This document shows positions 11,818 to 50,296 of a stretch of 64,000 nucleotides of DNA, piece after piece. The stretch comes from Candidatus Bathyarchaeum tardum. Lineage in GTDB: Archaea > Thermoproteota > Bathyarchaeia > Bathyarchaeales > Bathyarchaeaceae. The position numbers and the translations under genes are program-made. Each line of letters begins with the position of its first letter. Position 1 is the first letter of the stretch. Under the pieces are notes generated by a model, which saw only the letters and a program-made list of their open reading frames with translations, did no database searches and was not told where the DNA came from. The DNA lies in contig CP122380.1 in NCBI GenBank assembly GCA_024650005.2, positions 448,001 through 512,000 on the forward strand, in the 5' to 3' direction.

Positions 11818-11842
11818 ACTTAACAAAAACCTTTCATTCATG

Positions 11843-13549: not shown

Positions 13550-13595
13550 GTATACTGCTTGTATGTCTGTAACTTAAAAACTTCAGGCGAGAATA

Positions 13596-14990: not shown

Positions 14991-15227
14991 CTTTGGGCAC
15001 TTGTTTTTGTGGTTAATTGTTTTTTTGTTTGCGTTTAATAATCTTAAAAGAAGGCTTTTGAATTGGGTCACTGACACTTTTTATTTTTTTTTATGCAATA
15101 AAAATGATATTTTATAATTGGTATTGCATATAATTGTTTATGTGTTGTACGCCATGGTATCTGTCCAAAAGCTTAAATATGAATTTTTTAAGAAAGCTAG
15201 CCCATATAAACATGAGGTTACGAAAAA

Positions 15228-16544: not shown

Positions 16545-16567
16545 TTAACTAAACTAACTATCCAAAA

Positions 16568-16612
16568 GTGTGCGCGTTTTTTGGTGCACACATTGTTTTT
16601 TTTTTTTATTTT
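16568..16612 (+). terminator. Hairpin plus long T-tract after the RnfD fusion
   Basis: GTGTGCGC/GTGCACAC stem (one G-U) then T run. Confidence 0.55.
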
Positions 16613-16735
16613 TTGATATTTTAGACTGATTTTAACATAAACTGAGTGTTTAGTTATATTTGTGGCGTGCCGGTTGCGCAAAATATAAATGTATAATGAT
16701 AGTAAAGTGGAAAAAAGAAAAGGAGTAAACAAAAA

Positions 16736-17368
16736 ATGGCAAGCTGGACTGATTGGAAACTAAGCGATATCCTTTGGGGTATCTTTATACCTGTTATTGT
16801 TGCATTCTTGATTATAATATTCCCGACAGAACTTGCAAACATCCTTGCAGAAGTTGATCCCTCTTTATCACTAAACGCTATTTTCGTTGATGGTCTTGGA
16901 CAAGCAATTCTGACTGTAGCCATTCCATTGTTCGCTGGATTAATCTGGAACCAATGGGCTGGTGGCGGTGCAGGATTCCTTCTTGGAAGCATTTATGCAC
17001 TCTTCGTTAACGACGTATATTCAGTAATGGCCGCTACGATGGGAATTGGTATATCTGGTATGGGCATGGTTGGAGACATTAGCACTCTTGGTTACGTAGT
17101 ATCTGCAATGCTTGTAGGATACATGGCTGGAGCATTAAACAAAGGTTCTTACAGCTTCCGGAGAATGGTTGTAGCTGCAATGATTGCTGCATTTGTTGCT
17201 GCGGGCTTTGAGCTGTGGACTGGATTAATTTCGCCCCTTGGCATGGTAACTGATCCACTATATTCTGGTGCACTGATTGTACTACCTAAGGTCATCTACG
17301 CAGTCATTATACCAATATTCGTTACACTCTTCGGCTGGTTTGGTATAAGTCCCAAACAGATGATGTAA
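16736..17368 (+). CDS. Gly-rich multi-pass membrane protein, possibly ECF S-component-like
   Basis: 210 aa, about 5-6 hydrophobic segments, AGLIWNQWAGGGAGFLLG; AGGAG before ATG; no Cys. Confidence 0.7.
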   Translation: MASWTDWKLSDILWGIFIPVIVAFLIIIFPTELANILAEVDPSLSLNAIFVDGLGQAILTVAIPLFAGLIWNQWAGGGAGFLLGSIYALFVNDVYSVMAATMGIGISGMGMVGDISTLGYVVSAMLVGYMAGALNKGSYSFRRMVVAAMIAAFVAAGFELWTGLISPLGMVTDPLYSGALIVLPKVIYAVIIPIFVTLFGWFGISPKQMM

Positions 17369-17416
17369 TACAGTGTGAAAATACTGTATTTCATCCATCT
17401 TTCTTTTCTTTTTTTA
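17367..17416 (+). terminator. 10-bp stem with GAAA tetraloop followed by pyrimidine/T tract
   Basis: AATACAGTGT-GAAA-ATACTGTATT then TTTCTTTTCTTTTTTT. Confidence 0.6.
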
Positions 17417-17508
17417 ATGTTAATTTTTTAGAATATCTGCTTTTGTGCAAAACATATTAAGCATATCACAGTTTAGTTTTTGGCGTATACTTTCGTCAGG
17501 GAATTATT

Positions 17509-18900
17509 ATGAAACCACATGTGACTCTTGTCAATCCCCCATATCCAAGTAATGCACATCAGCATCCCCCTTTTACTCCTTTGGGTCTTGGTTATCTGGC
17601 TGCTGTCTTGGAAAAAAACAATTATGTAGTTGACGTTATCGATTGCCAAGCTCTTGGTATATCTTATGCAGAATTCAAAACTGAACTTGCTAAAAGAAAA
17701 CCTGATATCATCGGAATGACATCTACCACTTTAACCTACAAATCTGCGTTGAAAATCGCTGAAATTGCTAAACAAATACATCCAAACTGTTTGACCATTT
17801 TGGGAGGATGTCATGTTACTTTTTGGGATGAAAATGCACTGAAAGAGTGTCCATCATTGGATGTTGTTGTTCGAAAAGAAGGTGAAAACACAATATTGGA
17901 ACTAGTTCAACGAATGGATGCTGGCAAGTCATTTAGTGACATCTTAGGTATAACATGCCGAGATGGTGACACCTTTATTCGTAACCCTGATCGACCTTAT
18001 ATTGAAGACCTTGACAGTTTGCCTTTTCCTGCTCATCATTTGTGGCCTCTTGATCATTTAAAAAAATATGGCAATGTAATATTTCCCTTGATGACCAGCC
18101 GTGGCTGTGTATACTGGTGTGAATTTTGTTCTGCTGTACGAATGTTTGGCAGAAGATACCGCATGAGAAGTGCAAAAAACGTTGTTGATGAAATGGAATA
18201 TCTTCACAAAACTTATGGCTCAAGTACTTTCACTTTCTATGATGACGCTTTCACTGTTGACCAAGTCCGTGTTGAAGAAATATGTAAAGAGTTGTATGCC
18301 CGAAATCTTAAGTTAACTTGGGATTGTGGGACTCGTGTTGACATGGTTAACAAAGAACTGCTTCAAAAAATGAAAAATGCAGGATGTATTGCTGTTTGGT
18401 TTGGTGTTGAAGCTGGTTCCCAACGTGTCTTAGATGAAATGGGCAAAGGATTTACTTCACAACTTACAAAGGACGCTTTCAAAATGGCTCAAGATATTGG
18501 GTTAATGACTATTGCAAGCGTTGTTTTTGGTTTTCCTGGTGAAACCAAAGAAACTGCTATGGAAACCATCAAGTTCATTGAAGAAATCAATCCCGATGAC
18601 GTCGGATATTACATTGCTACGCCTTATCCTGGTACTCCAATGGCTGATTATGTAACAAAGATGGGTTGGGTGAAAGTAACGGACTTTAATAAATACGATA
18701 CAGCTACGCCAATCTTTGAGTTACCTACATTGAGTATGCAAGATGTGCGCGAAATCCGTGAAAAGGCTTTTCACAGATTCTATATTCGACCAACGTACAT
18801 TATTCGAATGTTTGCTAAAGGTGGAACATACGGTTATTCTGCAACAAAAACAGCTCTTGCACATCTTCTCAGGGCAACTAAGTCCAAAATTCACAAATAA
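17509..18900 (+). CDS. B12-binding radical SAM protein (paralogue 6, closest to paralogue 1)
   Basis: HQHPPFTPLGLGYLAA, GGCHVTFW, SRGCVYWCEFC, GVEAGS. Confidence 0.93.
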   Translation: MKPHVTLVNPPYPSNAHQHPPFTPLGLGYLAAVLEKNNYVVDVIDCQALGISYAEFKTELAKRKPDIIGMTSTTLTYKSALKIAEIAKQIHPNCLTILGGCHVTFWDENALKECPSLDVVVRKEGENTILELVQRMDAGKSFSDILGITCRDGDTFIRNPDRPYIEDLDSLPFPAHHLWPLDHLKKYGNVIFPLMTSRGCVYWCEFCSAVRMFGRRYRMRSAKNVVDEMEYLHKTYGSSTFTFYDDAFTVDQVRVEEICKELYARNLKLTWDCGTRVDMVNKELLQKMKNAGCIAVWFGVEAGSQRVLDEMGKGFTSQLTKDAFKMAQDIGLMTIASVVFGFPGETKETAMETIKFIEEINPDDVGYYIATPYPGTPMADYVTKMGWVKVTDFNKYDTATPIFELPTLSMQDVREIREKAFHRFYIRPTYIIRMFAKGGTYGYSATKTALAHLLRATKSKIHK

Positions 18901-24303: not shown

Positions 24304-25497
24304 TTAAGCAGTTCCTAATAGTTCATGGTACAGGTCAATAACTTGGTTTGTAATAATATTCCATGATAGCTTTTGTTCAATCATTTCACGTCCAAGGTCA
24401 CCCATCTTTTTTGCGAGGTCAGGATTCTGCAACAAGGTCAACAGTTTTTGAGTCAACTCAGGTTCATCTCCTGCTTCAATTACAAATCCGTTTTTTCTAT
24501 CTTCCAAGAATTCTGGTATTCCTCCAACATTTGTGGAAATAACTGGCAAAGCAGTAGATTGGGCTTCTAGTATCGCAAAGGGAAAGTTTTCATAAATTGC
24601 AGGCAGCACAAAAATGTCTGAAGCAGAATAAAGTTCAGGCAATTTTTCGTCCGGAACATAACCCAAGAATTTTACATCCTTTTCGATGTTTAGTTCTTTT
24701 GCTAAGTTTCGTAGGCTTTCTTCTTTTTCTTTGAATCCTGTTCCAGATATTGCAAAAGTTACGTTACTGAATTCTTTAAGAACCAAAGGAATCGACCGCA
24801 ATAAAGGCTCTAAACCTTTACGGTGATACAAACGCCCTACAAACAAAACGATTTTATTATCTGGTTCTAATCCAAACTGTTGTCGTAGTTCTATTTTGTT
24901 TGGTCGCGGTTTGAATTTTTGTATGTCTACTCCGTTGTAGATTACGTGTATTTTTTCTGTGCTGATTCCATAAAGGTCTGTTAATTCATTAACCGTGTAT
25001 TTACTCACTGCAATCAGGGCATCTGAACGGTTCATCAACTTTTTTTCGTACGATCTTAGAACAGAATTAAACCTGAGCATCGCTTTCTCGTTGGGGTTCA
25101 ACTCTTTGGGGTTGTCACGTTTTGTTACTATGGCTTCACCTTTCCATGTAGAATGAACCGCACATACAATCGCTTTAGCTGAATCCTTTGGTATGGCAAA
25201 ATTTGGAACCAACGGAAGATTTGCGTGTATTATATCAATGCCGATTTCCTCGTCAAGTTCTTTGATTTTCTTGGATGCCGAACGAGCAAACTTCCAATAT
25301 CGGGTTAAAGCATTTCCAACACCAGTTATGTAATGAACTTTAATTCCGTTAACAGTCCTTTCTGAGTCCTGTTTATCTCGAGCAACAACATGAATATGAT
25401 GTCCCATTTGTTGCAAACTGTGAGAAAGGTAAAAAACGTAGGCTCCTGTTCCCCCAGAAATTGGGAAATATTCGGGAGTTACAAAACACACATTCAA
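24304..25497 (-). CDS. Glycosyltransferase family 4
   Basis: EYFPISGG, YNGVD, FVGRL..KG, ENFPFAILEA. Confidence 0.92.
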   Translation of the reverse strand: MNVCFVTPEYFPISGGTGAYVFYLSHSLQQMGHHIHVVARDKQDSERTVNGIKVHYITGVGNALTRYWKFARSASKKIKELDEEIGIDIIHANLPLVPNFAIPKDSAKAIVCAVHSTWKGEAIVTKRDNPKELNPNEKAMLRFNSVLRSYEKKLMNRSDALIAVSKYTVNELTDLYGISTEKIHVIYNGVDIQKFKPRPNKIELRQQFGLEPDNKIVLFVGRLYHRKGLEPLLRSIPLVLKEFSNVTFAISGTGFKEKEESLRNLAKELNIEKDVKFLGYVPDEKLPELYSASDIFVLPAIYENFPFAILEAQSTALPVISTNVGGIPEFLEDRKNGFVIEAGDEPELTQKLLTLLQNPDLAKKMGDLGREMIEQKLSWNIITNQVIDLYHELLGTA

Positions 25498-26507
25498 TGT
25501 TTATCCTCTTCTCTTGTTAATGCAATTTGAATTAAAGATGTTATTCCCCCCAATGTCCAACCAAGGGCACGAACAAAATATATAACAACCAAATACATGG
25601 CAGACCCGTCCCTATAAATTGAAGAAATTTTTGTTGCAGAAGCAACATACTGCAATAAAGTTACCGTTACTATGCCCAAAAATGCAAAAGATGGAATCCA
25701 ATGAAAGATCGTAACAAAACTAACTAAAAGCAAGATACCTGCAATTCCATACAGTATAGGTTGGGCGTTCATCCATCCGTCTGTTATCTTATCTCCCTTT
25801 GCAAGTTTAGGGTGCTTCAAATAAAGTTTCCAAGTGTTCTGACCATACTTGTATTGTTGCCGGAAAAAAGCTCCCAAAGTCGGACGATGAAAATGATAAC
25901 AAACTGCTTCAGAATCAAAAGCTATTGTATAGCCCTCTTTTGCTAGCCTTGCGCCGATGTCTGTGTCGTACTGGGTTGGAAGAGTTTCGTCAAATCCTCC
26001 AATTTTTTTAACAATCTGTTTTTTCAGTAACAGGTTCATGGTTGCGACGCGTTCAACAGATTTGGGAAGCCTTCGATACCTGTAATTTAATTCATAACCG
26101 ATAACCCTTGGAACTAGATTGTTTTTATTCCATGTTTCTACCGTTCCGCTTGCTCCAGCAATTTTTGTGTCATCTAAAAGGTTAGCAAGTTTTGTTAGCC
26201 ACTGTTTTTCTACTTTAGCGTCAGAATCTATCAACCCAATTACTTCATGTTTTGCATCGTCCAAAACAAGGTTATATGCAGCAGCAGGATTAAGCTGACT
26301 GTAAACCAGTTTAACAGAATATTTTTTTGCAATCTCTATTGTTGCATCTGTTGAGCCTCCATCAACAACAATTACTTCAAGCAATTCTTTTGGGTAATCT
26401 AACTCGAAAATTGACTGTAAGCATTCATCTAGGGTTTGGGCGCTGTTTAAGGTGGTTACTATTATGCTTACGCCTAACTCAGTATTGTTGGTTGCTTTGT
26501 TTTTCAA
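25494..26507 (-). CDS. Glycosyltransferase family 2 with C-terminal TM helices
   Basis: VSIIV, VVDGGSTDAT, IDSD, GGFDE, RQQYKYG. Confidence 0.9.
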   Translation of the reverse strand: MKNKATNNTELGVSIIVTTLNSAQTLDECLQSIFELDYPKELLEVIVVDGGSTDATIEIAKKYSVKLVYSQLNPAAAYNLVLDDAKHEVIGLIDSDAKVEKQWLTKLANLLDDTKIAGASGTVETWNKNNLVPRVIGYELNYRYRRLPKSVERVATMNLLLKKQIVKKIGGFDETLPTQYDTDIGARLAKEGYTIAFDSEAVCYHFHRPTLGAFFRQQYKYGQNTWKLYLKHPKLAKGDKITDGWMNAQPILYGIAGILLLVSFVTIFHWIPSFAFLGIVTVTLLQYVASATKISSIYRDGSAMYLVVIYFVRALGWTLGGITSLIQIALTREEDKH

Positions 26508-26560: not shown

Positions 26561-27280
26561 TTATGATAAATAAGATGTAACTATAGCATAAAGTATTCTT
26601 GTCCCATCTTTTATAGGGTCAAGCTTTGATTGCCCTACTGTTCGCTGAATAAAACTTATGGGAGTTTCTACAACTCGCGCCTGTTTTCGTAAGGCTTTAA
26701 CAAGCATTTCAGACTCCACTTCATACCCATAAGAAGTTAACTTCATTTTTTTTATCAGCGAAGCTCGAATCGCTCGAAATCCTGACTGGGAATCAGTTAT
26801 GTTAACTCCAGTGAGATACCTTGTCAGGTTGTTGAATAGTTTATTTCCTGCCCTGTTTATTTTCGGAATCTTAGTTTTGTTATGTTCAGAATTTGCAAAT
26901 CTTGACCCAACAACAAAATCAGCCTTGTCATCCGTTAAATACTGTAAAATCAACGGAATTTCTTCAGGTTTATGCGAACCATCTGCATCTATTGTAACTA
27001 CATATTCTCCTTTAGCACGCAAAAAGCCACACCTGAGCGCAAATCCTTTTCCTGTGTGGCATCCTTTTATGACTATTGCTTTTTGTTTTTGAGCAATATC
27101 TGCTGATTTATCGTTTGAACCATCATCTACAACTAGAACTTCGTAGGATAATCCCATTTTTTCCAGTGTTTTATTTGTGCGATTAATTACGTCCCCTACA
27201 GTTACTTCTTCGTTGAACACTGGAATAATAACAGAAACGATAACTTTGTTTCGTTCCTTGTCTTCTTTGCTTTTTACCAT
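26561..27280 (-). CDS. Glycosyltransferase family 2, dolichol-phosphate mannose synthase-like
   Basis: VIIPVFNEE, VDDGS, GKG, DADGSH, GSRF, DSQSGFRA. Confidence 0.92.
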   Translation of the reverse strand: MVKSKEDKERNKVIVSVIIPVFNEEVTVGDVINRTNKTLEKMGLSYEVLVVDDGSNDKSADIAQKQKAIVIKGCHTGKGFALRCGFLRAKGEYVVTIDADGSHKPEEIPLILQYLTDDKADFVVGSRFANSEHNKTKIPKINRAGNKLFNNLTRYLTGVNITDSQSGFRAIRASLIKKMKLTSYGYEVESEMLVKALRKQARVVETPISFIQRTVGQSKLDPIKDGTRILYAIVTSYLS

Positions 27281-33190: not shown

Positions 33191-34687
33191 TTATTTTTGT
33201 TTAACTGGGATTCGTGGTATGGAAAACTGTTTTTCGACGTGTTGACGGTAGAACATGTTGTACACACAGAAAGGAATAATCCGGTTGTCAGGAGTCGCAT
33301 AATGAATAACACAATGATGGGCACGTTCTACATCAAACGTGTAGGGGTCCATGAAAGCCATGCTTCCGATTAGTAGGAGTCTTCTCCGGATGGGACCAAG
33401 GGAATCGTAAGAGGGGTTAGTGTGTATTTGAACCAGCGTCTTTATCGCATTTAACAAACCTGCTTCTCGTTGCACTTTTCTCCAGTCTAGCGACTTGAAG
33501 GAAGCAAGGAACAGTCTCAAATAAATTCCCAGTTTACTGATTTTCTGTTCTTTAACTAATAAATTCAAGTTTTTTAGATCAGACATGAACACGTCAAAAT
33601 TCAGGAACCGATTAATTGGCGTAAACATGTGGTTTCCGCGCCTGGAAACTAAAATCCAGTTCCAAAGCCCACAATATGGTGTAGGCGTAAAAGGTGGCCA
33701 AATTTTTGAAAGGAAAGTATTCATGATTTTTAGGGGAGGATCCATAACTGAAACAGGGAACATATCATCTTCTTGGATTAATCCATTTGTTTGTTCGGCA
33801 ATTTTTTGAGCAAGTAATGAGTTATCTATCCGTTGCTGTCTAGAAACAAATTCATGTGTCCGTCCCGTGAAAGACATGGGCTGAAAAACAATACCCCGTA
33901 CGATGTCTACGTTTTTGGCAGCGAACTTGACTATATCTCCGACTTCGTTGTCATTTATGCTCCCTTGAACTGTAGGAACCAGAATGATTTCGATGTCATG
34001 TTTTCTACAGAGTTCAACAAGACGTAACTTGTTTGGCAACAATTTGGCATTTCTTAGTTTCTTATAAGGAGCATCTGTAAGTCCATCAAATTGCATGTAA
34101 ACTATGTTTAGTCCTGCTTTCTTGAGTTTTCTGACCAATTCCGGGTCGTTGGACATTCTAACACCGTTTGTGGCGAGAAGAATCATGTATTTTAGGTCAT
34201 GAGCCATTTGCACAATTTCCACGATATCATCGCGGACCGTTGGTTCTCCACCCGCAAACATTACTGCTAAAGGTGCGGGATCTTGTTTTTTCAAAAACTT
34301 GAGCATGTCATGAATTTTTTCTTTACTTGGCTTATAAAGGTCAGGAGGTTGGGAAGCATTTGCAAAACATATGGGGCATCTTAAATCACATTCATTAGTT
34401 ACGTCGATTACTGCCATGACTGTTGCAGAAACATGATTAGGGCATTTGTTTACTGCACAGCCTTCGGGACAGTTGTCCTTAAAGGGTGTTGATGACGGTC
34501 TTTTGTATTCTTCAGCTTTGTGATAAATGTCTGCCCGTGACCAGTAGGTATCACTGAAGTTACCGTGTTCTTTGCAAGTTTTTTCTATTAGAATTTTGCC
34601 ATCTTTTTCTACAACTTGAGCTTTTATTTTTTCATAACAAACTGGACAAACGCTGAAAGTTTCCCTGAGAATTTTTTGCTCAGTCAC
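33191..34687 (-). CDS. tes: Tetraether synthase (Tes / GDGT-MAS, MJ0619 family) homologue
   Basis: SVCPVC..TCKEHG..YW; IDVTNECDLRCPICFANA; AGGEPTVR; RGIVFQP.SFTGR; FMDPYTFDVER..CVIHYATPD.RIIPFCVYN. Confidence 0.85.
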   Translation of the reverse strand: MTEQKILRETFSVCPVCYEKIKAQVVEKDGKILIEKTCKEHGNFSDTYWSRADIYHKAEEYKRPSSTPFKDNCPEGCAVNKCPNHVSATVMAVIDVTNECDLRCPICFANASQPPDLYKPSKEKIHDMLKFLKKQDPAPLAVMFAGGEPTVRDDIVEIVQMAHDLKYMILLATNGVRMSNDPELVRKLKKAGLNIVYMQFDGLTDAPYKKLRNAKLLPNKLRLVELCRKHDIEIILVPTVQGSINDNEVGDIVKFAAKNVDIVRGIVFQPMSFTGRTHEFVSRQQRIDNSLLAQKIAEQTNGLIQEDDMFPVSVMDPPLKIMNTFLSKIWPPFTPTPYCGLWNWILVSRRGNHMFTPINRFLNFDVFMSDLKNLNLLVKEQKISKLGIYLRLFLASFKSLDWRKVQREAGLLNAIKTLVQIHTNPSYDSLGPIRRRLLLIGSMAFMDPYTFDVERAHHCVIHYATPDNRIIPFCVYNMFYRQHVEKQFSIPRIPVKQK

Positions 34688-35547
34688 GTTAAAGCCCCTA
34701 AAACCAATGCTAAAGGTATGAGTATCATTGTTCTTGTTGCAAATCTTTCATGTTTCTTTACATTGTTTATAGCTTGGTTTTTGAGCAAAGAAACTCCCGA
34801 AACAACAAGAATTGCATCCCAAATAATGATTGGAATTAAATACGCGTAACCAACTGCACCTACCAGATACGGAATGGGTGAACCCGCTACGTTGAGCAAG
34901 AAGAAAGTTGCTCCCACTTTGGTTGCAAAACTTGTACCCCGTTTAGCTGCTAAGGTTGCATATCCTGCTTTTTTGTCTCCTTCTAGGCTTAGTACGTCTC
35001 TTAGTACGTTTCCACCTATGCTTCCCATGCTCATGAACGTCAACGATAAAGATGTTATAGTGATTGTTCCGAATAAAGCAGCTTCACCGTAAACAAAGGA
35101 TGTTCCTATGAGAAAGCCCATAAGAAAACTTCCTAAGAATCCGATGTGTTTTTTGATGTATTTGGAATAAGCAATTAAAAGAACAGTATCGGTTATGGCG
35201 ATGGCAACACATAGCCAATTTATTGTTGCTGATGCAGCAATTCCGATAACAAACAAGATTATTGCTGTTAAAAGTGCTTCCCACGGCTTCAAGTTTTTGG
35301 ATGGTATTGGTCGGTTCTTTTTTACTATAGCGTCTGACTCTTGGTCTACATAATCGTTGAAGGCAAAACCGCCTGAACTAATGCATATTGCTGACAGGAC
35401 GACTAACGGTATTATTAACTCGTTTTCCGGTAAGATCCCTCGTTGCAAAGTAAAGATTGTTAAAACTGAAAGACCACCCGTCATTAACCAGTATGGCGGA
35501 CGAAGAAGCATAATAATGGCCTTAAGCCGATTTTTAAACGAAGCCAT
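34684..35547 (-). CDS. UbiA-family prenyltransferase, DGGGP synthase-like
   Basis: LLRP, NDYVDQESD..RPIPS, AYS, EGDKKAG.ATL; TGA overlaps the GTG of tes. Confidence 0.87.
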   Translation of the reverse strand: MASFKNRLKAIIMLLRPPYWLMTGGLSVLTIFTLQRGILPENELIIPLVVLSAICISSGGFAFNDYVDQESDAIVKKNRPIPSKNLKPWEALLTAIILFVIGIAASATINWLCVAIAITDTVLLIAYSKYIKKHIGFLGSFLMGFLIGTSFVYGEAALFGTITITSLSLTFMSMGSIGGNVLRDVLSLEGDKKAGYATLAAKRGTSFATKVGATFFLLNVAGSPIPYLVGAVGYAYLIPIIIWDAILVVSGVSLLKNQAINNVKKHERFATRTMILIPLALVLGALT

Positions 35548-35558: not shown

Positions 35559-36503
35559 CTAATATCTTTTTGAGCTTATTATTTTTTTCAGTCCCTCTTC
35601 AATGCTCACTTGAGGGGTCCATTTCAGGATTTTTTTGGCTTTAGAATTGTCAGCCAATGTTATATCCATGTCTCCTTCCCATGCTTTGCCGCCTTTGAAG
35701 TAAATATCAACGTCTTCAAATCCAAGAATCTTTACAATCAGATTAGCTAGGTCTGTTACCGAAGTTGTGGAACCTGTTCCAACGTTAAAGGCATGTCCTG
35801 AAGCTTCAGGAGTAATCGCAGCCCTTAGTAAAGCGTTCACCAAGTCGTCAACATACACAAAGTCTCTGGATTGTCTACCGGTTCCCAGAACTTCCAGCTT
35901 GTGGGGATCCTTTTTTAGTTTATTAAGAAAGTCATAAATTACGCCTTGGCAGTTGGGTCCATAAACGTTGAAGATACGGAACATAACAGTTTCCAGTCCG
36001 TACGTTTTATGATAGAAGCTACAATAATGTTCACCTAGAAGTTTTGTTAACCCATAAAAGGCGATAGGGTTTGGTTCTGCTGTTTCGGGAGTTGGTTTTT
36101 CTTGGGGGTTACCGTAAACTGCAGAAGAAGAAGCAAAAACCACTCGGGCACCTGCTTTTCTGGCAGCTTCAAGGACACTCAAAGTTCCGATTACGTTAAT
36201 CTCGCTGTCTTCTTGGGGGTTGACCATGGAAAAAGGAACGCTTGTTTGTGCTGCTAAATGAAAAATTGTTTTACATTTTTTTGTCGCTTCTTGTATTGCC
36301 TCTTTCTCGCGGATGTCTTTTTGCACAAATTTTAGACCGTTTTCCATGAGGTCTTGTATGCGTTCTGTGCTTCCAGAATAAAGGTTATCAATTACGGTTA
36401 CTTTGGAGCCCAGTTCTACCAATTTTTTGCACAAGTTAGAACCGATGAAACCAGCACCACCAGTAACAACTACTTCTCGTCCATTGAATTCTTTCAATGC
36501 CAT
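35559..36503 (-). CDS. NAD-dependent nucleotide-sugar epimerase/dehydratase (UDP-glucose 4-epimerase-like)
   Basis: VTGGAGFIG, HLAA, SSSAVYG, YGLTK, FNVYGP, RDFVYV; start moved to ATG 36503. Confidence 0.9.
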   Translation of the reverse strand: MALKEFNGREVVVTGGAGFIGSNLCKKLVELGSKVTVIDNLYSGSTERIQDLMENGLKFVQKDIREKEAIQEATKKCKTIFHLAAQTSVPFSMVNPQEDSEINVIGTLSVLEAARKAGARVVFASSSAVYGNPQEKPTPETAEPNPIAFYGLTKLLGEHYCSFYHKTYGLETVMFRIFNVYGPNCQGVIYDFLNKLKKDPHKLEVLGTGRQSRDFVYVDDLVNALLRAAITPEASGHAFNVGTGSTTSVTDLANLIVKILGFEDVDIYFKGGKAWEGDMDITLADNSKAKKILKWTPQVSIEEGLKKIISSKRY

Positions 36504-36616
36504 ACCCCAATAATATGACTGCAAACTAATGAGGCACTCATTAGTTAACCTTTTCCAAAAAAACATTACCCCAAATAAATCTTCATGCTGGGTCACAAAC
36601 TGAACAAGTGTTCAAA

Positions 36617-37177
36617 CTAGGCTGATGCTTCGATTGCTTCAACAGACAGGTTGACCCAGATTCCGCTATATTGATACTCTGTTGCAGTTGCATTCCAGAT
36701 GAACAATTCAAAGATGATCCTGTTTGTTCCCAACTTTTCTATGGTTATTTCTACTGGAAATTCCCAAATGTCGTTATCTTCTAAAGTTTGATCAAAATAT
36801 TCTATGACTTCGGCTGAACTTTGATTTAATACACCCTTTCCATCATCAATTTTCATTAATACTTGATAATCAAGGGGTTCATTGTTCTGGTTTTCTACAC
36901 CAACCCATAACGAGAACGTGCTGTTTTCTCCCAAAATTATCGTTGAGGGCAAGTTTTCTGTTTGTTTATTAGAATCCAAGTAGTATAGCGCTGAACATTT
37001 TTCTGCATTTATAGGTGTTAAAAGTGTTAACTGCACTAAGAGAGCACCTATAATCACCACAGCAATTGCAATTGTAAGGATTACGGTTTTTTCTTCATTA
37101 CTGTAAGCAGAGGATTCTGTTTTTGAAGTTTTTTTGATTTTTTTTTCCATAAATTCGTCATTATTGTTATTCGTCAA
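36617..37177 (-). CDS. DUF1616-like single-TM protein
   Basis: One TM, then E..SALYYL, VGVEN, FELF, WVNL. Confidence 0.7.
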   Translation of the reverse strand: MTNNNNDEFMEKKIKKTSKTESSAYSNEEKTVILTIAIAVVIIGALLVQLTLLTPINAEKCSALYYLDSNKQTENLPSTIILGENSTFSLWVGVENQNNEPLDYQVLMKIDDGKGVLNQSSAEVIEYFDQTLEDNDIWEFPVEITIEKLGTNRIIFELFIWNATATEYQYSGIWVNLSVEAIEASA

Positions 37178-37361: not shown

Positions 37362-38525
37362 TCATTTTTTATTGTAGACTTCTTGATAAACTTCCAGTAG
37401 TTGGCGAACGTTTTGTTTCCAGCTGAGCTTACTATGAATATACTGTTTAGCTTGTTTACCAATTTCAGATATAATCTCTTTTTCTGCTAGCAATTTAGAT
37501 AATGTATTAGCCATTACTTGGGGTTTTTGAGGTGGCACCAGAATGCCGTTTTTCATGTGCTCAATTATTTCTGGTGTGCCACCTACTATTGTCGCAACTA
37601 CGGGCAATCCACAGGACATAGCTTCAATAAGAACTAAAGGCAATCCTTCACCAGATGAAGAGGGTAACAAAAAGAAATCAGCTGCTGCATAATAGACAGG
37701 TAAGAGTTCATCAGGAACAAACCCAACTAGTTTGATGTTTTTTTCTATTCCAAGTTCTTTGATTCGTTCTTCAATTAAGCTTCTGCTGGGTCCTTTTCCT
37801 GCGACTACAAACAATACTTCTGGATGATTTTTTGCTAGCAAATAAGCGGAGTCTATAAGCGTGTCAAGCCCATTTTTATAGACTAATCTTCGAGCGCTGA
37901 AGATTATCTTTCGGTTTTGGGGTAAACCTAGTTTGTCGCGGCTTTGGTCTTTGTTTGCGGACTGAAAACAGTTTGTGTCTACGCCGTTATAAATTACTGA
38001 AGTCTTTGATTTGTCTGCCCCTAGACTAAGAACATACTTCATTGTTTGTTTACTTACCGTGAGTATTCTATCTGCGCGTTTCAAAACTGATTTACCAATT
38101 ATTACGTCATTGAGGTTTTCTACAGTGTTGAGCCATGACTTGTAATCAATGAAAGTGTTGTGCTGGGTTACAATAAAGGGTTTGTTGTATTTTTTTGCAA
38201 GCACGCCTGCAAGGCACGAAGACATGTAAACGTGACCGTGAGCATGAACCAAATCACAGTTTCTTATCTTCTTAGCAAATAGTTTGTAAGCGTTTACAAA
38301 AAGAATTGGATATGGCACGCCAAACCGGTCAGTAAATTTCAAGCTGGGATATGCAAAAACGTTGATTCCTTTGATGGGGTGCCTTGTTTGATCTTTTGTT
38401 TTACTGGTTAAAACATCAAATTCATAACCTGATTCTATTAATCGTTTGCTTTGTTCATATGCTACCTTTTCGATACCTCCCACGTGAGGTGAAAAAAAGT
38501 GCGTGACGAGGCATACTTTAGGCAT
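37362..38525 (-). CDS. Glycosyltransferase family 4
   Basis: PHVGGIE, VHAHG, YNGVD, RLVYKNG, EGLPLVLIEA. Confidence 0.92.
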   Translation of the reverse strand: MPKVCLVTHFFSPHVGGIEKVAYEQSKRLIESGYEFDVLTSKTKDQTRHPIKGINVFAYPSLKFTDRFGVPYPILFVNAYKLFAKKIRNCDLVHAHGHVYMSSCLAGVLAKKYNKPFIVTQHNTFIDYKSWLNTVENLNDVIIGKSVLKRADRILTVSKQTMKYVLSLGADKSKTSVIYNGVDTNCFQSANKDQSRDKLGLPQNRKIIFSARRLVYKNGLDTLIDSAYLLAKNHPEVLFVVAGKGPSRSLIEERIKELGIEKNIKLVGFVPDELLPVYYAAADFFLLPSSSGEGLPLVLIEAMSCGLPVVATIVGGTPEIIEHMKNGILVPPQKPQVMANTLSKLLAEKEIISEIGKQAKQYIHSKLSWKQNVRQLLEVYQEVYNKK

Positions 38526-45706: not shown

Positions 45707-46708
45707 TTAGCACCATTTTATAATTTGTTGTGGGATTTTAGTTATTGGAAGGATTTTGTCAACATTTCCTTCTTCTATGGCTATTTTGGGCATGCCATAT
45801 ACAGTGCATGTCTTTTTGTTTTGGGCTATTGTTTTTCCGCCCTTTTCTTTGATGGCTTTCATGCCCCAAGAGCCGTCCCGTCCCATTCCGGTTAGGATTA
45901 CTCCGATCACTTGGTCTTGAAAAACTCGGGCTGCTGTTTTCATCATGGGGTCAACTGCTGGCCGGACTCCATGGATGTTGGGTCCTTTGTCTAGTTTTAT
46001 CCTTCCGTTGCCTGAAACTGTCATGTGTTGACCTGCAGGGGCAATAAGGGTTAGTCCGTGTTCAATTTTATCTCCTTTTTCTGCCTCTTTTACTTGGAAA
46101 CTGCAAAGCTTGTCTAACCTTTCTGCAAACAACTTAGTGAAACCCTTTGGCATGTGCTGAACAATCAGTATAGGGGGACTGTTTTCTGGTAGATGAACCA
46201 AAACTTCTTCTACTGCGGGAGGTCCTCCAGTTGAAGCCCCAATAGTAATGATTTTTTCTGCGATTTCTTGTTTAATTTTAATTGGTGAATAAGTTTCGTG
46301 TTCATGAGTAACAAGGTTTGCTTCTGCAGCAGTTTTGATTTTTTCTACAAGTTCATTTCTTACTTTTTCTATATCCAACGAGATTTGTCCTGAAGGTTTT
46401 TGGATATAATCTACAGCTCCTAGCCTAAGTGCTTTGAAAGTTGTTTCTGCCCCTTCTTTGGTGGTTGCACTAACCATTACCACTGGCTTGGGATTTGTTT
46501 TCATTATCTCTTTTAATGTAGTTAAACCGTCCATCCGCGGCATGTTAACGTCTAACGTGATTACGTCGGGGTCCAATTCTTTGATTTTTTTTAAGGCATT
46601 AAGTCCATCAAAAGCAGATCCAACAACAGTTAAATCAGGGTCTGAGTCAACAATTTTAGTGATAACCTTTCGCATAAACGCAGAGTCATCAACGACTAAA
46701 ACTTTCAA
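45707..46708 (-). CDS. cheB: Chemotaxis methylesterase CheB
   Basis: REC domain VVDDSAFMR..LDVNMP; GASTGGP, QHMP, GMGRDG. Confidence 0.97.
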   Translation of the reverse strand: MKVLVVDDSAFMRKVITKIVDSDPDLTVVGSAFDGLNALKKIKELDPDVITLDVNMPRMDGLTTLKEIMKTNPKPVVMVSATTKEGAETTFKALRLGAVDYIQKPSGQISLDIEKVRNELVEKIKTAAEANLVTHEHETYSPIKIKQEIAEKIITIGASTGGPPAVEEVLVHLPENSPPILIVQHMPKGFTKLFAERLDKLCSFQVKEAEKGDKIEHGLTLIAPAGQHMTVSGNGRIKLDKGPNIHGVRPAVDPMMKTAARVFQDQVIGVILTGMGRDGSWGMKAIKEKGGKTIAQNKKTCTVYGMPKIAIEEGNVDKILPITKIPQQIIKWC

Positions 46709-46812
46709 AATGTATTCCCCACAAAATCACCATCAAATTTGAGTTATGCCTAAAAAGGGGAAAGGAACAAAAATTTTTGTTCAATTATTGGCTAATCACG
46801 TTTGTTATTTAG

Positions 46813-47313
46813 TTAAGCAATTGGAACGATTTTTGCTGCAGGTTCCTTATTGCGCGCGGAAGTTTCTTGCTCATCCGCTTCTTCTTTGCTGTCACTGATT
46901 ATTTTGGCCAAATCCAGAATGACTACCAGTTTTTCTTTTTGTTTTCCAACGCCAACCACATATTCTTCCAGTTTTTTTGTTACCTGAATGCCCCTTTCAA
47001 TGTCTGCTTCAGCGATTGTTGAAACCTCTGTTACAGAATCAACTACAATGCCCACTGCAGTTTTTCCCATCTCGATGACAATAATTTTTTCACCGCTACT
47101 TTCTTTGCCTTCTAGGTTCAAGCGTTTGCGAAGGTCCATTACTGTTATGATTTGTCCTCGAAGGTTAGTTACGCCTTCAACGTAGCTGGGGGCTCCGGGA
47201 ACCGGAGTTACAGCTTGCACATCTCGAACTTCCCTGACTTGCTCCACGGGTGCGCCGTAGTTTACGTCTCCAACCGTAAAGTTGACGATTTGTATTCCAT
47301 TAGTTACTGCCAT
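46813..47313 (-). CDS. cheW: Chemotaxis coupling protein CheW
   Basis: QVREV, VTPVPGAP.YVEGVTNLRGQI, GIVVDSV. Confidence 0.95.
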   Translation of the reverse strand: MAVTNGIQIVNFTVGDVNYGAPVEQVREVRDVQAVTPVPGAPSYVEGVTNLRGQIITVMDLRKRLNLEGKESSGEKIIVIEMGKTAVGIVVDSVTEVSTIAEADIERGIQVTKKLEEYVVGVGKQKEKLVVILDLAKIISDSKEEADEQETSARNKEPAAKIVPIA

Positions 47314-47324
47314 GCTTGATGCCC

Positions 47325-49067
47325 CTACTGCCACATGTCTTTGAACATCTTGACTTCAGATTCAATCTTTTTAGCAAGTTCCATGATTCTGGTTACTTCT
47401 TCCTGAACTTTGGTTGCTGCTACTGCTACTTCTTCGGTTGCTGCGGTTTGTTCTTCAATGCTGGCTGCAGTTTGTTCAGATGCAGATGCAGATTCTTCAG
47501 AGAAACTTGCTACCTGCTCAACAACTCCACCTACGTCTTCAAGGTATCTCACAGATTCTTGGACTGCTGCTTGTAGGTTCTTGGTTACTCCCAGAATTTG
47601 TTGCATGGATTCCGCTACTTTTTGGGAACCAGTAACTGCATCGTTAACATTCATGTCACCTTCTACGGCTGCTTGATCTGCGCTTTTTGACATAGTTCCT
47701 GCACGTTCTCCGGCTTTGGTAATTGTATCAATAGATTCAACAGATGTTTTTGCTGCAGTTCCTGCTTGTCCGGCGAGTTGTTTTACTGCATCGGCTACGA
47801 CTGCGAATCCTCGTCCTGCCTCGCCTGCTCGAGCTGCTTCGATTGCAGCATTCAAGGCTAACATGTTAATTTGTCCTGCAATTTGGGATATATCGTCTGC
47901 TAATCCAGCAACGTTTTTGACTGAAGCGTTTACTTCACTGATAGTTATTCCAACATCGCTTGATGCTGCTTTGATTGCGTTTAATGATTTTAGGGCTTCT
48001 TTTCCGTTTTCACTGGCTTCTTGTGCTACTTTGTTAGATGTGTCTACAATTTTGTTTACTTCTTCAGTATTTGTGCTAACGTTGGTCATTTTTTGCATCA
48101 AAACTTGGACGTTCTTTTGTGTTTCTTGAGCAAGTTTAGAAAGGCTTTGGGCACCATCCGAAACATTTTGCGAGGCAGCCATTACCTGTTCCATTGTGTT
48201 GCTTAATCTTTCAGATGCTTGTGCTGATTGTGCACCCATTGCACCGATGTTTTCTGCTGTTGAGAGTATCTCTGTTGAAAGACCAGCAATGTTATCAGAC
48301 ACAGAAGTGCTAACTTGAACCAAACTTTGAGTGTTTTCTAGCATCTGTTTAATTTCAGTAATATCAACGACTGACTCAATTGCACCAATCACTTTTCCTG
48401 TATTATCAAAAAGTGGTGAACCCGTGTAACGAATGTGCCATTTACCATCTGAAATAGTCTCAGATGTTTCTGGCTTTTTGTTTTTCATTGCAATAGCACA
48501 TGCACATTTCGGTGTTTTGCAATCTTCTGTTTTGTAAAGATTGTAACATTTCTTTCCAATGAACTTGTCAGGAGTTGATCCCAACAAGCTTGCTGCATAT
48601 TCATTGAGGAATGTAACTTCAAAATCTTTGTTTATTGCGACAATGGATGCTTGAGCTCCTTGTAGATATTGTGCTTGTTTTTCAGCTAATTCGACTTCCT
48701 TTTTGAGGGAAGTTATATCGACCAAGTATTCTACTGCACCAATAACTTTACCTTTGTCATCACAAAGTGGTGAGCCTGTGTTCCAAATCCGCATTTCGCT
48801 GTTTCTTGTTTGAGCAGTTGCTTGTTTCTTTTTCTTCATTGCAATCGCACAAACACATTTGGGTGTTTTGCAGTCTTTAGTTTTGAAAAGGTCATAACAT
48901 TTTTTTCCAACAAGTTTGTCCGGGTTTGACTTCAGCATTTTCGCGCCGAACTCGTTGATGTATGTAACATCAAAATCTTTGTTTATTGCTACAACTGCCC
49001 CCTGAACGCCTTCAAGATACTGAGTATAAGTGTTAGATGTTTCATCTAATTGTGTTGTTTTCGCCAA
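47325..49067 (-). CDS. Soluble methyl-accepting chemotaxis protein with two Cys-rich PAS domains
   Basis: IAGQINMLALNAAIEAARAGEAGRGFAVVADAVKQLA; two N-terminal PAS repeats; no TM; GGAGG before TTG 49067. Confidence 0.93.
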   Translation of the reverse strand: MAKTTQLDETSNTYTQYLEGVQGAVVAINKDFDVTYINEFGAKMLKSNPDKLVGKKCYDLFKTKDCKTPKCVCAIAMKKKKQATAQTRNSEMRIWNTGSPLCDDKGKVIGAVEYLVDITSLKKEVELAEKQAQYLQGAQASIVAINKDFEVTFLNEYAASLLGSTPDKFIGKKCYNLYKTEDCKTPKCACAIAMKNKKPETSETISDGKWHIRYTGSPLFDNTGKVIGAIESVVDITEIKQMLENTQSLVQVSTSVSDNIAGLSTEILSTAENIGAMGAQSAQASERLSNTMEQVMAASQNVSDGAQSLSKLAQETQKNVQVLMQKMTNVSTNTEEVNKIVDTSNKVAQEASENGKEALKSLNAIKAASSDVGITISEVNASVKNVAGLADDISQIAGQINMLALNAAIEAARAGEAGRGFAVVADAVKQLAGQAGTAAKTSVESIDTITKAGERAGTMSKSADQAAVEGDMNVNDAVTGSQKVAESMQQILGVTKNLQAAVQESVRYLEDVGGVVEQVASFSEESASASEQTAASIEEQTAATEEVAVAATKVQEEVTRIMELAKKIESEVKMFKDMWQ

Positions 49068-49468
49068 TTTGTTTTCCTCCGAATTCCCCAATAAAAAAAA
49101 TGTAGATTCAAAAAACTATTACATTGTGTGCATACACAAGTCAGACACACAATAATGAATCACGTTTTCAAAAAACTAAACTCACATTTTTAATGTTGAA
49201 CCCGTTTCCATTATTTCCTATTGTTCTCCATATGATGCCGTAATAGTAATTCACCATATCAAAAATTTATAAGTCAAAAATTATACGGAAAGCACAACTC
49301 CGTTAAGGGCTGAAATGTTCACGCATTAGTAACCTGTTCAGCTGCTATTTGTTTGTGGATTGCAGTTTCACCATGGTTTGGGATTATTTTCTTGAGTTCA
49401 AAATTAATTTTTTTGCCAAGGATAACTATGAGCTTATCCCCATTTTTCTAACACCTACCACGCAGTTA

Positions 49469-50296
49469 TCAACCTTTTTGGTAAATTCGGCATTTTGAGT
49501 TAACGTCAACAAATTTTTGGCTGGCTTCTCCAGCGATAAATTCTGTCTTGCCTGATATCAAGTAGCCCTCTGGTCGCAGGGAGTTATAGAAATGTCCGTA
49601 AATTATTTGTTGAATTTCTCTGGAAAAGTAGATCATGACATTTCGGCATAAAATTAAATCCAGGTTCCGGCGCACCGGTGGAGCCATTAAATCTTGTTTT
49701 TCGAAATGAATAATCTCTTTTATAAAGGGTTTAACCTTGTATATGTTGTCTTCAAAGTCAAAATATTTTTCAAGCAACTTTTTGTTGATGCTTTCTGTTG
49801 CTCGTTTATCGTATTCTCCACGAGCTGACTTGTCCAGAACTGTTTCATCGATGTCTGAAGCGTATATTGTAACTCGTCGTTCTTTTGGTGGAATTTTTGA
49901 AACTTCATGAATTAGCATGGCCAGAGAATATGGCTCTTCACCTGTTGCGCATCCTGCGCTCCAAATTCTAATCCATGGTTTGGATGAGAATATGAGTTTA
50001 GGAAGAAGTGTGTCTTTCAAAAAATCGTAGACGTCTGTGTCCCTGAAGAATTTGGTGTAGTTTACTGTGACATCGTCGATTAATCGCTTAAATTCTGCTG
50101 GATTTGTTTTAAGAAATTGCATGTACTTGGAGTAAGTGTGAGTTTTTGTTAGGGTTAATCTTACTTTTAATCGCCTTTTCAAGTAAGACTCACGGTAGTA
50201 ATCAAAATTAATTCCCGTACCTTGATTCATTACCTCTTTGAGCATTTGAAAATCAATTTCAGTGCCTACGTCTACAGTTGAACATGTTTGATTCAC
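49469..50296 (-). CDS. cheR: Chemotaxis methyltransferase CheR
   Basis: TVNYTKFFRD, IWSAGCATGEEPYS, CRNVMIYF. Confidence 0.96.
   Translation of the reverse strand: MNQTCSTVDVGTEIDFQMLKEVMNQGTGINFDYYRESYLKRRLKVRLTLTKTHTYSKYMQFLKTNPAEFKRLIDDVTVNYTKFFRDTDVYDFLKDTLLPKLIFSSKPWIRIWSAGCATGEEPYSLAMLIHEVSKIPPKERRVTIYASDIDETVLDKSARGEYDKRATESINKKLLEKYFDFEDNIYKVKPFIKEIIHFEKQDLMAPPVRRNLDLILCRNVMIYFSREIQQIIYGHFYNSLRPEGYLISGKTEFIAGEASQKFVDVNSKCRIYQKG

Follow-up and report, generated by a model that had tools for sequence, protein, structure and literature searches.

A second, diverged DGGGPS-like and Tes-like gene pair beside sugar genes in Bathyarchaeia, possibly serving an accessory ether-lipid route

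The window analysed here is a stretch of 64,000 nucleotides of Candidatus Bathyarchaeum tardum (contig CP122380.1, positions 448,001 to 512,000), and all coordinates given below are positions within it. It contains two adjacent minus-strand genes, here called UbiA2 and Tes2. UbiA2 (34684..35547, minus strand) encodes a 287-amino-acid DGGGPS-like paralogue of the UbiA prenyltransferase family, and Tes2 (33191..34687, minus strand) encodes a 498-amino-acid radical SAM paralogue of Tes/GDGT-MAS that starts with GTG. Direct reading of the sequence places the TGA stop codon of UbiA2 inside the GTG start of Tes2, as GTGA, at 34684..34687 on the minus strand. The minus-strand text across the junction is GGGGCTTTAACGTGACTGAG, and an AGGGG stretch lies 8 nt 5′ of the GTG. 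An overlap of 4 bp is by itself common in operons. However, it was kept in 24 of 26 related loci, and this retention exceeds chance; the remaining two loci showed spacings of -17 and 0, values that depend on the start-choice rule used. An earlier note on this DNA had described the overlap and regarded the two genes as translationally coupled, and with their adjacency across relatives the pair is indeed a conserved, coupled unit.

An extended-SDR gene resembling UDP-hexose 4-epimerases (35559..36596, minus strand; PF01370, 212 bits) lies directly 5′ of UbiA2 with a gap of 11 bp. Its translation probably begins with the Met at about 36503, and its best PDB relatives are short UDP-glucose 4-epimerases from thermophilic bacteria and archaea (4ZRM, 195 bits). 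Upstream of it, in the same direction, are the genes of a DUF1616 membrane protein (36617..37177, minus strand; PF07760, 57 bits) and a GT4 glycosyltransferase (37362..38525, minus strand; PF00534/PF13439). Gene order in the cluster is maintained across 15 loci representing 14 genera. The epimerase gene was located 5′ of UbiA2 in 10 of 11 loci of the same genus, the eleventh of which ends inside UbiA2, and in 12 of 15 loci of other genera; in five loci it overlaps UbiA2 by 4 bp. The GT4 gene adjoins the pair in 14 of the 15 other-genus loci, and a weak DUF1616 homologue (23-40% identity) adjoins the cluster in 13. Clusters of family f9 contain a GT2 whose top models, matched below their cut-offs, are those of AglJ and dolichyl-phosphate hexose transferase; no such GT2 was found in the cluster of this genome. 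It is possible that GT4, GT2 and DUF1616 act in protein glycosylation and are neighbours of the pair only.

UbiA2 matched the UbiA family (PF01040) at 108 bits. Its best NCBIfam models are of the DGGGPS type, with scores below the cut-offs (167.6 against 269 for PRK12884 and 153.8 against 296 for PRK12882). A second DGGGPS-like gene of the same genome, which is 29% identical to UbiA2, came closer and was also under both cut-offs (255.8 and 203.2, respectively). The predicted model of UbiA2 (pLDDT 92) superposed on MjDGGGPS with TM scores of 0.84-0.86 (6M31/7BPU) and on other UbiA-family structures with scores of 0.57-0.77. MjDGGGPS (MJ0279, PDB 6M31), a fold of nine transmembrane helices with two lipid tunnels, is thus the best structural match, at 28% identity. 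Both proteins contain motif 1 (NDxxDxxxD), the Y...K motif, F148 and D187, while motif 3 reads GGNxLRDxLSxxGD in UbiA2 and GRExxKGxxDxEGD in DGGGPS.

Residues are numbered after MjDGGGPS as in the available text of PMC9385802. The equivalents of N62, D66, D70, Y125, K130, F148 and D187 were kept in all 26 UbiA2 sequences compared; those belonging to motifs 1 and 2 are N64, D68, D72, Y127 and K132 in UbiA2 numbering, again in 26 of 26. The motif 1 string NDYVDQESD, cited in the earlier note, is present at residues 64-72, and the aberrant string reported there, GNVLRDVLSLEGD, is present at residues 179-191. The latter belongs to the third motif, which deviates from the canonical form throughout the clade (26/26), so that GGNxLRDxLSxxGD is clade-invariant. 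R175 is replaced by Gly, E176 by Asn and D183 by Ser in 26 of 26 UbiA2 sequences, whereas the canonical DGGGPS copies of the order have Arg, Glu and Asp in 17 of 17. All 26 also have Asp at position 180, where the canonical copies of the order have Gly, and the third-motif Asp is therefore displaced by one helical turn, from 183 to 180. The GRE stretch and D183 of DGGGPS motif 3 are both missing from UbiA2. Chlorophyll synthase, too, has Ser at the position of D183.

According to the available text of PMC9385802, alanine mutants of the motif 3 residues D180, D183 and D187 of MjDGGGPS were impaired in GGGP binding and not in GGPP binding, and the tunnel-2 residues I29, S171 and F148 bind GGPP. 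Two of the three donor-tunnel residues are kept in UbiA2. Because the changes lie in a motif whose Asp mutants lose acceptor binding and these two donor-tunnel residues are retained, a different acceptor or head end of the substrate would be favoured over a different chain length. We infer the altered acceptor from these alignments; the part of PMC9385802 available to us does not state a role for R175 or E176 in MjDGGGPS.

The sugar genes raise another reading, that the pair has a role outside core lipids in cell-surface or protein glycosylation, UbiA2 making or modifying a polyprenyl-type glycan carrier and Tes2 modifying that carrier or another hydrophobic substrate. The neighbouring GT4, DUF1616 and epimerase genes and the AglJ-like GT2 of f9 would fit it, and the UbiA family includes decaprenyl-phosphate phosphoribosyltransferase, to which UbiA2 has a weak match (45 bits). 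We consider it quite improbable, however, since DGGGPS is by far the closest relative of UbiA2 in both sequence and structure (TM 0.84, whereas the membrane phosphoribosyltransferase 8J8J/8J8K reaches 0.57-0.66), N62 and Y125, which position the glycerol, are kept, and Tes2 matches GDGT-MAS over all four domains.

Tes2 exceeded the threshold of 450 bits for NF045702 (tetraether lipid synthase Tes) with a score of 493.9, and it scored 419 bits against PDB 7TOL. It is 43% identical to the canonical Tes of the same genome. The predicted model (pLDDT 81) matched 7TOM over its full length with a TM score of 0.86, so that Tes2 has the four-domain architecture and fold of Tes/GDGT-MAS (MJ0619, PDB 7TOL/7TOM; MA_1486) at 39-40% identity. 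In the loci compared, Tes2 differs from these proteins in that a dedicated UbiA gene always stands ahead of it; in this genome and its closest relatives, two extra residues also separate the second Cys of the N-terminal cluster from the third.

Alignment to 7TOL, combined with the residue list in the available text of PMC9433317, indicated that all metal ligands are kept. The rubredoxin ligands C14/C17/C38/H41 align to C9/C12/C33/H36 of MJ0619 and the radical SAM ligands C100/C104/C107 to C98/C102/C105, and both sets are invariant in 27 Tes2 sequences. The ligands of the N-terminal auxiliary [4Fe-4S] cluster are all present as C73/C77/C82/H85 (C73, C77, C80 and His in the reference). Met443 corresponds to the labile Met439 of GDGT-MAS and Tyr463 to the conserved Tyr459, and Arg212, Gln269, Ser272 and Arg276 stand for R210, Q268, S271 and R275, all of them kept. 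C339, C459 and C474 (Tes2 numbering) are invariant in 13 of 13 Tes2 and 43 of 43 canonical sequences, and on this conservation they are the probable ligands of the C-terminal cluster. Of 67 alignment columns that are conserved in canonical Tes, Tes2 retains 54, and from its sequence it looks catalytically complete. Four substitutions at otherwise conserved sites are fixed in the clade: N→D following the first Cys of the radical SAM motif, T→N343, H→A444 next to the labile Met, and G→K/R166.

The motif oddities of Tes2 on which the earlier note had relied are mostly normal family variation or are confined to close relatives. The string CPEGCAVNKCPNH is present at residues 73-85 with its Cx3Cx4C spacing, but as a clade feature it fails, being found in 3 of 13 Tes2 sequences (this genome, P0027 and P0094), while nine of the other ten examined have Cx3Cx2C. 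TPTPYCG is likewise present, at 334-340. Its contrast with HxHCG does not hold, since His precedes the Cys in 13 of 43 canonical representatives. ERAHHCVIH occupies residues 454-462, and here "CV" in place of "CC" is the commonest state of canonical Tes (V in 17 of 43, C in 8 of 43). These counts rule out HxHCG and CC as features of the Tes family.

The fixed substitutions bear on the possibility that the chemistry of Tes2 has changed, that is, that Tes2 performs a "class D" radical SAM methylation or another C-H functionalisation on a lipid made by UbiA2 and joins no tails. The family of MJ0619 was first annotated as class D methylases, an assignment that the authors of the structure were unable to reproduce (both according to the available text of PMC9433317). 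When the second of the Tes homologues of Methanosarcina acetivorans, MA_1114, was expressed, GDGT was not formed and macrocyclic archaeol appeared in traces only, as described in the available part of Zeng et al. 2022 (PMC8941075). Like Tes2, MA_1114 occurs as an additional Tes-family gene, in its case beside a working Tes, a likeness drawn from its description only, and it is a precedent for paralogues with another or narrower role; that part of PMC8941075 reports no UbiA gene linked to it. Nevertheless, the putative ligands of the C-terminal cluster are present in Tes2, as is the proposed coupling Tyr, and a change of chemistry appears very unlikely to us.

As the earlier note had supposed, the pair is a second, diverged one. 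A search of the 2.15-Mb genome for canonical copies recovered both a canonical Tes and the closer DGGGPS-like gene, so UbiA2 and Tes2 are not the sole copies. On NF045702 the canonical Tes scored 680.8 bits and Tes2 about 494, a difference of 187 bits; on PRK12884 the corresponding scores were 255.8 for the DGGGPS-like gene, which has the usual GRE..K...D.EGD motif, and 167.6 for UbiA2. Because a canonical Tes and a better DGGGPS-like gene are present in the same genome, UbiA2 and Tes2 constitute an extra pair. GGGPS is present in a single copy.

In phylogenetic analysis the Tes2 clade was monophyletic (SH-aLRT 100) with a stem of 0.64, and the canonical Tes of this genome grouped elsewhere, together with that of genome G040. 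Tes2 is thus a distinct subfamily and not an orthologue of characterised Tes. Among 1.84 billion representatives, its own cluster scored 965 bits and the next best 341, and this search found no Tes2-type protein outside that one 50%-identity cluster. An ESM Atlas look-up with Tes2 returned generic Tes-like clusters only.

Tes2-type genes were found in 112 of 301 genomes of the order: 21 of 24 in genus g1 in addition to this genome, the single genomes of g33 and g34 (1/1 each), and 88 of 148 in family f9. None was found in 93 genomes of the other families of the order. In a phylum-wide sample they occurred in 21 of 401 genomes, all from f1 or f9, and are thus confined, in the genomes sampled, to two families of one Bathyarchaeia order. 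UbiA2-type genes, defined by scores of at least 182 bits where canonical DGGGPS reach at most 134 bits, follow the same distribution within the order, and in every Tes2-positive row compared by hand, a subset of the 112, UbiA2 was adjacent on the same contig. More than 110 species of the order carry the pair. Orthologues of GT4 (E<=1e-60) showed the same phyletic pattern in 113 of 301 genomes (18 of 24 sampled in g1 plus this genome, g32, g33 and g34 with 1/1 each, and 91 of 148 in f9), with 0 of 93 in the other families of the order. Few independent events underlie this co-distribution, namely a subset of one family and one genus group. Genome G032 has a split Tes-like gene with neither UbiA2 nor the epimerase alongside.

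Of 25 genomes of the genus, 18 yielded both a canonical Tes and Tes2. In four of its 22 Tes2-bearing genomes, G016 (95% complete), G009 (90%), G002 (84%) and G005 (81%), canonical Tes was not found, and either Tes2 can stand in for it or the gene lies in unassembled DNA. These four genomes would suit the simplest alternative to a new lipid, in which the two proteins are redundant or condition-specific isoenzymes, UbiA2 producing ordinary DGGGP and Tes2 ordinary GDGT-0 or macrocyclic archaeol; in such a case the pair might be used under other growth conditions or other regulation. That Tes2 is above the NCBI Tes cut-off, that its cofactor ligands, Met439 and Tyr459 are all kept, and that UbiA2 retains the Mg-binding and glycerol-positioning residues would also agree with isoenzymes. 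On the other hand, Tes2 has a long stem branch and is isolated in sequence space, the third-motif changes of UbiA2 are invariant in 26 of 26 with canonical DGGGPS showing the opposite in 17 of 17, the two genes are inherited strictly together and in linkage with the epimerase and GT4, and both Tes copies coexist in those 18 of 25 genomes. We therefore hold isoenzymes to be possible but on balance unlikely.

The genus is presumably Baizosediminiarchaeum, and this brings the butanetriol and pentanetriol tetraethers (BDGT/PDGT) into consideration: a methylated backbone would serve as the acceptor for UbiA2, and the product would then be joined to normal archaeol by Tes2. The paper of Coffinet et al. 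2022 reportedly speaks of enzymatic backbone methylation in its title, which calls for no second DGGGPS or Tes, and a preprint likewise describes addition of a methyl group to the glycerol backbone, for which no second DGGGPS or Tes is called for. The pair is also equally common in the second family (88 of 148 in f9), and the other known producer, Methanomassiliicoccus, probably does not have Tes2, judging from the isolation of the Tes2 cluster only. The link between the pair and BDGT is therefore weak and the reading highly improbable, although the UbiA2 changes fall in a motif tied to acceptor binding, no enzyme for BDGT is named in the literature searched, and BDGT is a lineage-specific biomarker of the marine Bathyarchaeia genus Baizosediminiarchaeum in the available texts of PMC12694404 and PMC13003381.

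UbiA2 and Tes2 are intact and strongly conserved paralogues. The earlier note had proposed a second, specialised ether-lipid route, with a non-glycerol or modified backbone, a macrocyclic diether or another chain length as conceivable products; what speaks for such a route is that the pair is extra, diverged and conserved, whereas the Tes motif oddities cited there are no evidence. The reading we prefer, with a probability of about one half, is an accessory, lineage-restricted ether-lipid route that would lead, beside the housekeeping DGGGPS and Tes, to a distinct and probably glycosylated macrocyclic or membrane-spanning lipid. Since UbiA2 retains the residues for the donor tunnel, Mg and glycerol positioning but has an altered third motif, the one related to the acceptor, it would attach a polyprenyl chain (probably geranylgeranyl) to an acceptor of the glycerol-monoether type with a head end unlike that of GGGP. 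Once the chains are saturated, Tes2 would join the isoprenoid tails by GDGT-MAS chemistry: a 5′-deoxyadenosyl radical would give a C-S intermediate on the C-terminal [4Fe-4S] cluster, followed by C-C coupling of the terminal methyls, and the outcome would be a distinct macrocyclic or membrane-spanning lipid. Against a new lipid, the curated NCBI model would name Tes2 "Tes" and the catalytic residues are all kept, so the chemistry may be identical and the product plain GDGT. No description of the pair was found in the literature searched, a scope to which Dong et al. 2025 and Coffinet et al. 2022 do not belong. A complex prediction for Tes2 and UbiA2 scored 0.00 and gave no verdict.

Bathyarchaeia are among the most abundant sediment archaea, and their lipids serve as biomarkers of which the biosynthesis is almost unknown, according to the available text of PMC12694404. 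Gene surveys take any Tes homologue as capacity for GDGT. They may thereby mis-assign function, for members of the Tes2 clade exceed the curated Tes threshold although they are separate paralogues accompanied by a prenyltransferase and sugar genes of their own. Should the product of the pair prove to be a distinct lipid, genes could be tied testably to a biomarker in two large Bathyarchaeia families, and substrate choice in Tes and DGGGPS could be studied as a natural experiment.

In the preferred accessory route, the head group would be a hexose, with the epimerase and GT4 responsible for its supply and attachment. Glycosidic tetraethers are abundant in anoxic sediments. In a more speculative "glycolipid-first" form of the route, comprising epimerase, UbiA2, Tes2 and GT4, UbiA2 would add the second chain to a phosphate-free glycosylated monoether and Tes2 would join the tails of glycosyl-archaeol, giving glycosidic tetraethers directly and bypassing CDP-archaeol. 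This form takes up the loss in UbiA2 of an Arg and a Glu, both of which canonical DGGGPS keep without exception; we think it rather improbable. Were it true, the pair would be a gene marker for a Bathyarchaeia source of glycosidic tetraethers. The CobS and NTP-transferase genes beside the cluster were also considered as a head-group activation pair and were set aside: they are single copies here and score best, below the cut-offs, on the CobS/CobY models of cobalamin.

The two genes lie head to tail on the minus strand. UbiA2 (34684-35547), the upstream gene, encodes a UbiA-family protein of 287 aa and is directly followed by Tes2 (33191-34687), which encodes a 498-aa radical SAM protein. The stop/start overlap claimed in the earlier note was read directly in the sequence: the TGA stop of UbiA2 is located inside the GTG start of Tes2 at 34684-34687 (...AGGGGCTTTAACGTGACTGAG...), and a purine-rich AGGGG stands 8 nt 5′ of this start. 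All peptide strings quoted in that note were found in the two ORFs. In profile searches UbiA2 matched PF01040 with 108 bits, and its best NCBIfam models were of the DGGGPS type, both below cut-off (167.6 versus 269 and 153.8 versus 296). Tes2 exceeded the cut-off of 450 of NF045702 (tetraether lipid synthase Tes) with 493.9 bits, and a domain search also found an HMPTM-type zinc ribbon in it. No description of the pair was found in the limited literature searched, outside which lie Dong et al. 2025 and Coffinet et al. 2022, papers that may name candidate genes.

The host genome, a single contig (C1) of 2,152,572 bases, is 97.9% complete. A genome-wide search for canonical, housekeeping-type copies bore out the proposal that the pair is a second set. 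Another Tes-family gene at C1:1169330-1170748 reached 680.8 bits on the Tes model, and its product is 43% identical to Tes2. There are six UbiA-family genes in total; the best DGGGPS-like one, C1:1558446-1559168, scored 255.8 and 203.2 bits on the same two DGGGPS-type models, and its product has the usual NTGREITKGIVDVEGDK motif and 29% identity to UbiA2. UbiA2 and Tes2 are therefore not the only copies. The genome also encodes one GGGPS and three polyprenyl diphosphate synthases. A polyprenyl diphosphate synthase gene outside the window (C1:1706179-1706916, minus strand) adjoins two minus-strand radical SAM genes, C1:1703568-1704038 and C1:1704807-1705109. We give a probability of about 0.5 to the reading that the pair belongs to an accessory lipid module. 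In this module, a modified monoether would receive an isoprenoid chain from UbiA2, the tails would be coupled by Tes2 via GDGT-MAS chemistry, and a hexose head group would come from the epimerase and GT4. For a further Tes gene that plays a different part there is a known precedent, MA_1114 of M. acetivorans, reported to yield no GDGT and macrocyclic archaeol in traces only (PMC8941075).

As a predicted structure, UbiA2 (pLDDT 92.2) aligned to MjDGGGPS (MJ0279) with TM 0.84-0.86 and to other UbiA structures with 0.57-0.77. Residues were compared, in MjDGGGPS numbering, between 26 UbiA2 and 17 canonical DGGGPS-like sequences of the order. N62, D63, D66, D70, Y125, K130, F148 and D187 are common to both sets. 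Motif 3 reads G-R-E-x-x-K-G-x-x-D-x-E/Q-G-D in the canonical set, with R, E and D183 in 17/17, and G-G-N-x-L-R-D-x-L-S-x-x-G-D in all 26 UbiA2 sequences, so that Arg175 and Glu176 are missing and the Asp sits at 180 rather than 183; chlorophyll synthase likewise has Ser at the D183 position. In MjDGGGPS, as described in PMC9385802, the lining of the GGPP tunnel includes I29, S171 and F148, the glycerol is held in position by N62 and Y125, and Ala mutants of motif 1 (N62, D66, D70) and motif 3 (D180, D183, D187) are impaired in binding of GGGP but hardly of GGPP. From these residues we infer that UbiA2 probably still takes a polyprenyl diphosphate as donor and an acceptor of the glycerol type, and that it probably recognises another head end.

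The AlphaFold model of Tes2 (pLDDT 81.4) matched the MJ0619 structure 7TOM over its full length with TM 0.86. Mapping onto 7TOL (419 bits) and onto the residues listed by Lloyd et al. 2022 (PMC9433317) indicated that the rubredoxin site (C14, C17, C38, H41), the N-terminal cluster ligands (C73, C77, C82, H85), the radical SAM motif (C100, C104, C107), the 5′-deoxyadenosine contacts (R212, Q269, S272, R276), the labile Met (M443) and the conserved Tyr (Y463) are all kept. Cys 339, 459 and 474, taken to be the putative C-terminal cluster ligands, are invariant in 13/13 Tes2 and 43/43 canonical representatives. The Tes2 clade retains 54 of the 67 columns conserved in at least 85% of the 43 canonical sequences. 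The oddities singled out by the earlier note lost their force in this comparison: Cx3Cx4C occurs only in the host genome and in two further Tes2 proteins (P0027, P0094), while 9 of the 10 others have Cx3Cx2C; His precedes the Cys of the supposed HxHCG in just 13/43 canonical Tes; and the Val of "CV" is what canonical Tes has most often (V in 17/43, C in 8/43). Changes fixed in the clade are Asn to Asp101 right after the first radical SAM Cys (13/13, versus N in 39/43 canonical), Thr to Asn343 (13/13, versus T in 37/43), His to Ala444 beside the labile Met (13/13, versus H in 38/43) and Gly to Lys/Arg166. That the chemistry of Tes2 is altered is, in our judgement, very unlikely.

Close relatives carry the source names Candidatus Bathyarchaeota, Bathyarchaeum and MCG. 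Within g1, the genus of the host (the host and 24 sampled genomes), Tes2-type genes were found in 22/25 genomes, canonical Tes in 21/25 and both together in 18/25. This coexistence speaks against UbiA2 and Tes2 as redundant isoenzymes, a reading that we consider rather unlikely. Four g1 genomes, 81-95% complete, yielded no canonical Tes, which could mean that Tes2 suffices for GDGT. Order-wide (E<=1e-130, at least 455 bits), Tes2-type genes occurred in 112/301 genomes: 21/24 of g1 plus the host, the single genomes of genera g33 and g34, 0/33 in the rest of the family (f1), 88/148 in f9, a second family of the order, and 0/93 in the ten other families. In the phylum sample they occurred in 21/401 genomes, each in f1 or f9. 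UbiA2-type genes, separated from canonical DGGGPS by a clean gap (at least 182 versus at most 134 bits), were counted by hand in 23/24 g1 genomes, g33, g34 and 95/148 f9 genomes. UbiA2 lay on the same contig directly 5′ of Tes2 in every Tes2-positive row compared by hand, a subset of the 112. In a Tes-family tree (n=59; quick method, midpoint rooting), the 13 Tes2-type sequences form one clade (SH-aLRT 100, stem 0.64), whose sister group is left unplaced, and the canonical Tes of the host genome and of genome G040 pair elsewhere (SH-aLRT 99). One Tes-family gene, L028 5001-6433 (G032:C55), is broken by in-frame stops (one TGA, one TAG) into two pieces 44% and 35% identical to Tes2, lacks an adjoining UbiA2 or epimerase, and may be a decaying copy.

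BDGTs have been reported as specific to one Bathyarchaeia genus (PMC12694404, PMC13003381), and the literature searched does not name the enzyme, which could suggest that the pair makes BDGT/PDGT. However, the pair is equally frequent in f9; Tes2 has no relatives beyond its own 50%-identity cluster among 1.84 billion representative proteins (965 bits, runner-up 341 bits); and formation is described as methyl addition to the glycerol backbone (preprint; Coffinet et al. 2022). This reading seems to us less probable still than altered Tes2 chemistry. Window 1321-18900 contains six B12-binding radical SAM genes, 1321-2709 (+), 4610-6007 (-), 10471-11817 (+), 11843-13330 (-), 13596-14990 (+) and 17509-18900 (+), together with two radical SAM/SPASM genes, two class-I methyltransferases and CbiB. 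None passed an equivalog cut-off in NCBIfam, where the closest matches were BchE/HpnJ-like. They are plausible candidates for lipid- or cofactor-modifying enzymes, and better backbone or tail methylase candidates than the pair.

Upstream of the pair lie the epimerase/SDR gene (35559-36596), DUF1616 (36617-37177) and GT4 (37362-38525), all on the minus strand. The following locus and phyletic counts come from related genomes and have few independent gains or losses behind them. In g1, UbiA2 and Tes2 stand between the epimerase side and a dihydrolipoyl-dehydrogenase gene in 11/11 loci; the epimerase is visible in 10, because one locus ends within UbiA2. Among 15 loci of 14 other genera, an extended-SDR gene is 5′ of the pair in 12, and the flanks include GT4 in 14, DUF1616 in 13 and an AglJ-like GT2 in 13, all f9, with a CobS/NTP-transferase pair on the opposite side. 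UbiA2 and Tes2 share 4 bp in 24/26 loci; in five, the SDR gene and UbiA2 share 4 bp as well, and in g1 a gap of 11 bp separates them. The best PDB likeness of the SDR protein is to short UDP-glucose 4-epimerases of thermophilic bacteria and archaea (4ZRM with 195 bits, then 3ICP and 3EHE). GT4 orthologues (E<=1e-60) follow the phyletic pattern of the pair: 113/301 genomes of the order, with 18/24 of g1 plus the host, 1/1 each in g32, g33 and g34, 91/148 in f9 and 0/93 in other families. Such glycosyltransferase neighbours could also be expected if the pair acted on a glycan carrier or in protein glycosylation, which we hold to be distinctly unlikely. The f9-type AglJ-like GT2 has no close counterpart in the host genome; its best match (38% identity) is at another location, about 3 kb from two divergent UbiA-family genes, 1890324-1891061 (-) and 1891255-1892046 (+), in C1:1886473-1892094 outside the window.

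A second glycosyltransferase block is present on the minus strand of the window (GT4 24304-25497, GT2 25494-26507, AglJ-like GT2 26561-27280). At least six f9 loci (L030, L032, L035, L037, L038, L043) have a block of this type close to the pair, one with a weak GT2 match only. In five f9 loci (L030, L032, L033, L034, L037) the GT4 side of the cluster holds a further CobS-like copy that is more diverged, adjoined by an NTP-transferase gene in L034 and L037; both genes are single-copy in the host genome. The window also contains, at 45707-50296, the chemotaxis genes CheB, CheW, MCP with PAS domains and CheR, in an archaeal lineage with few cultured members.
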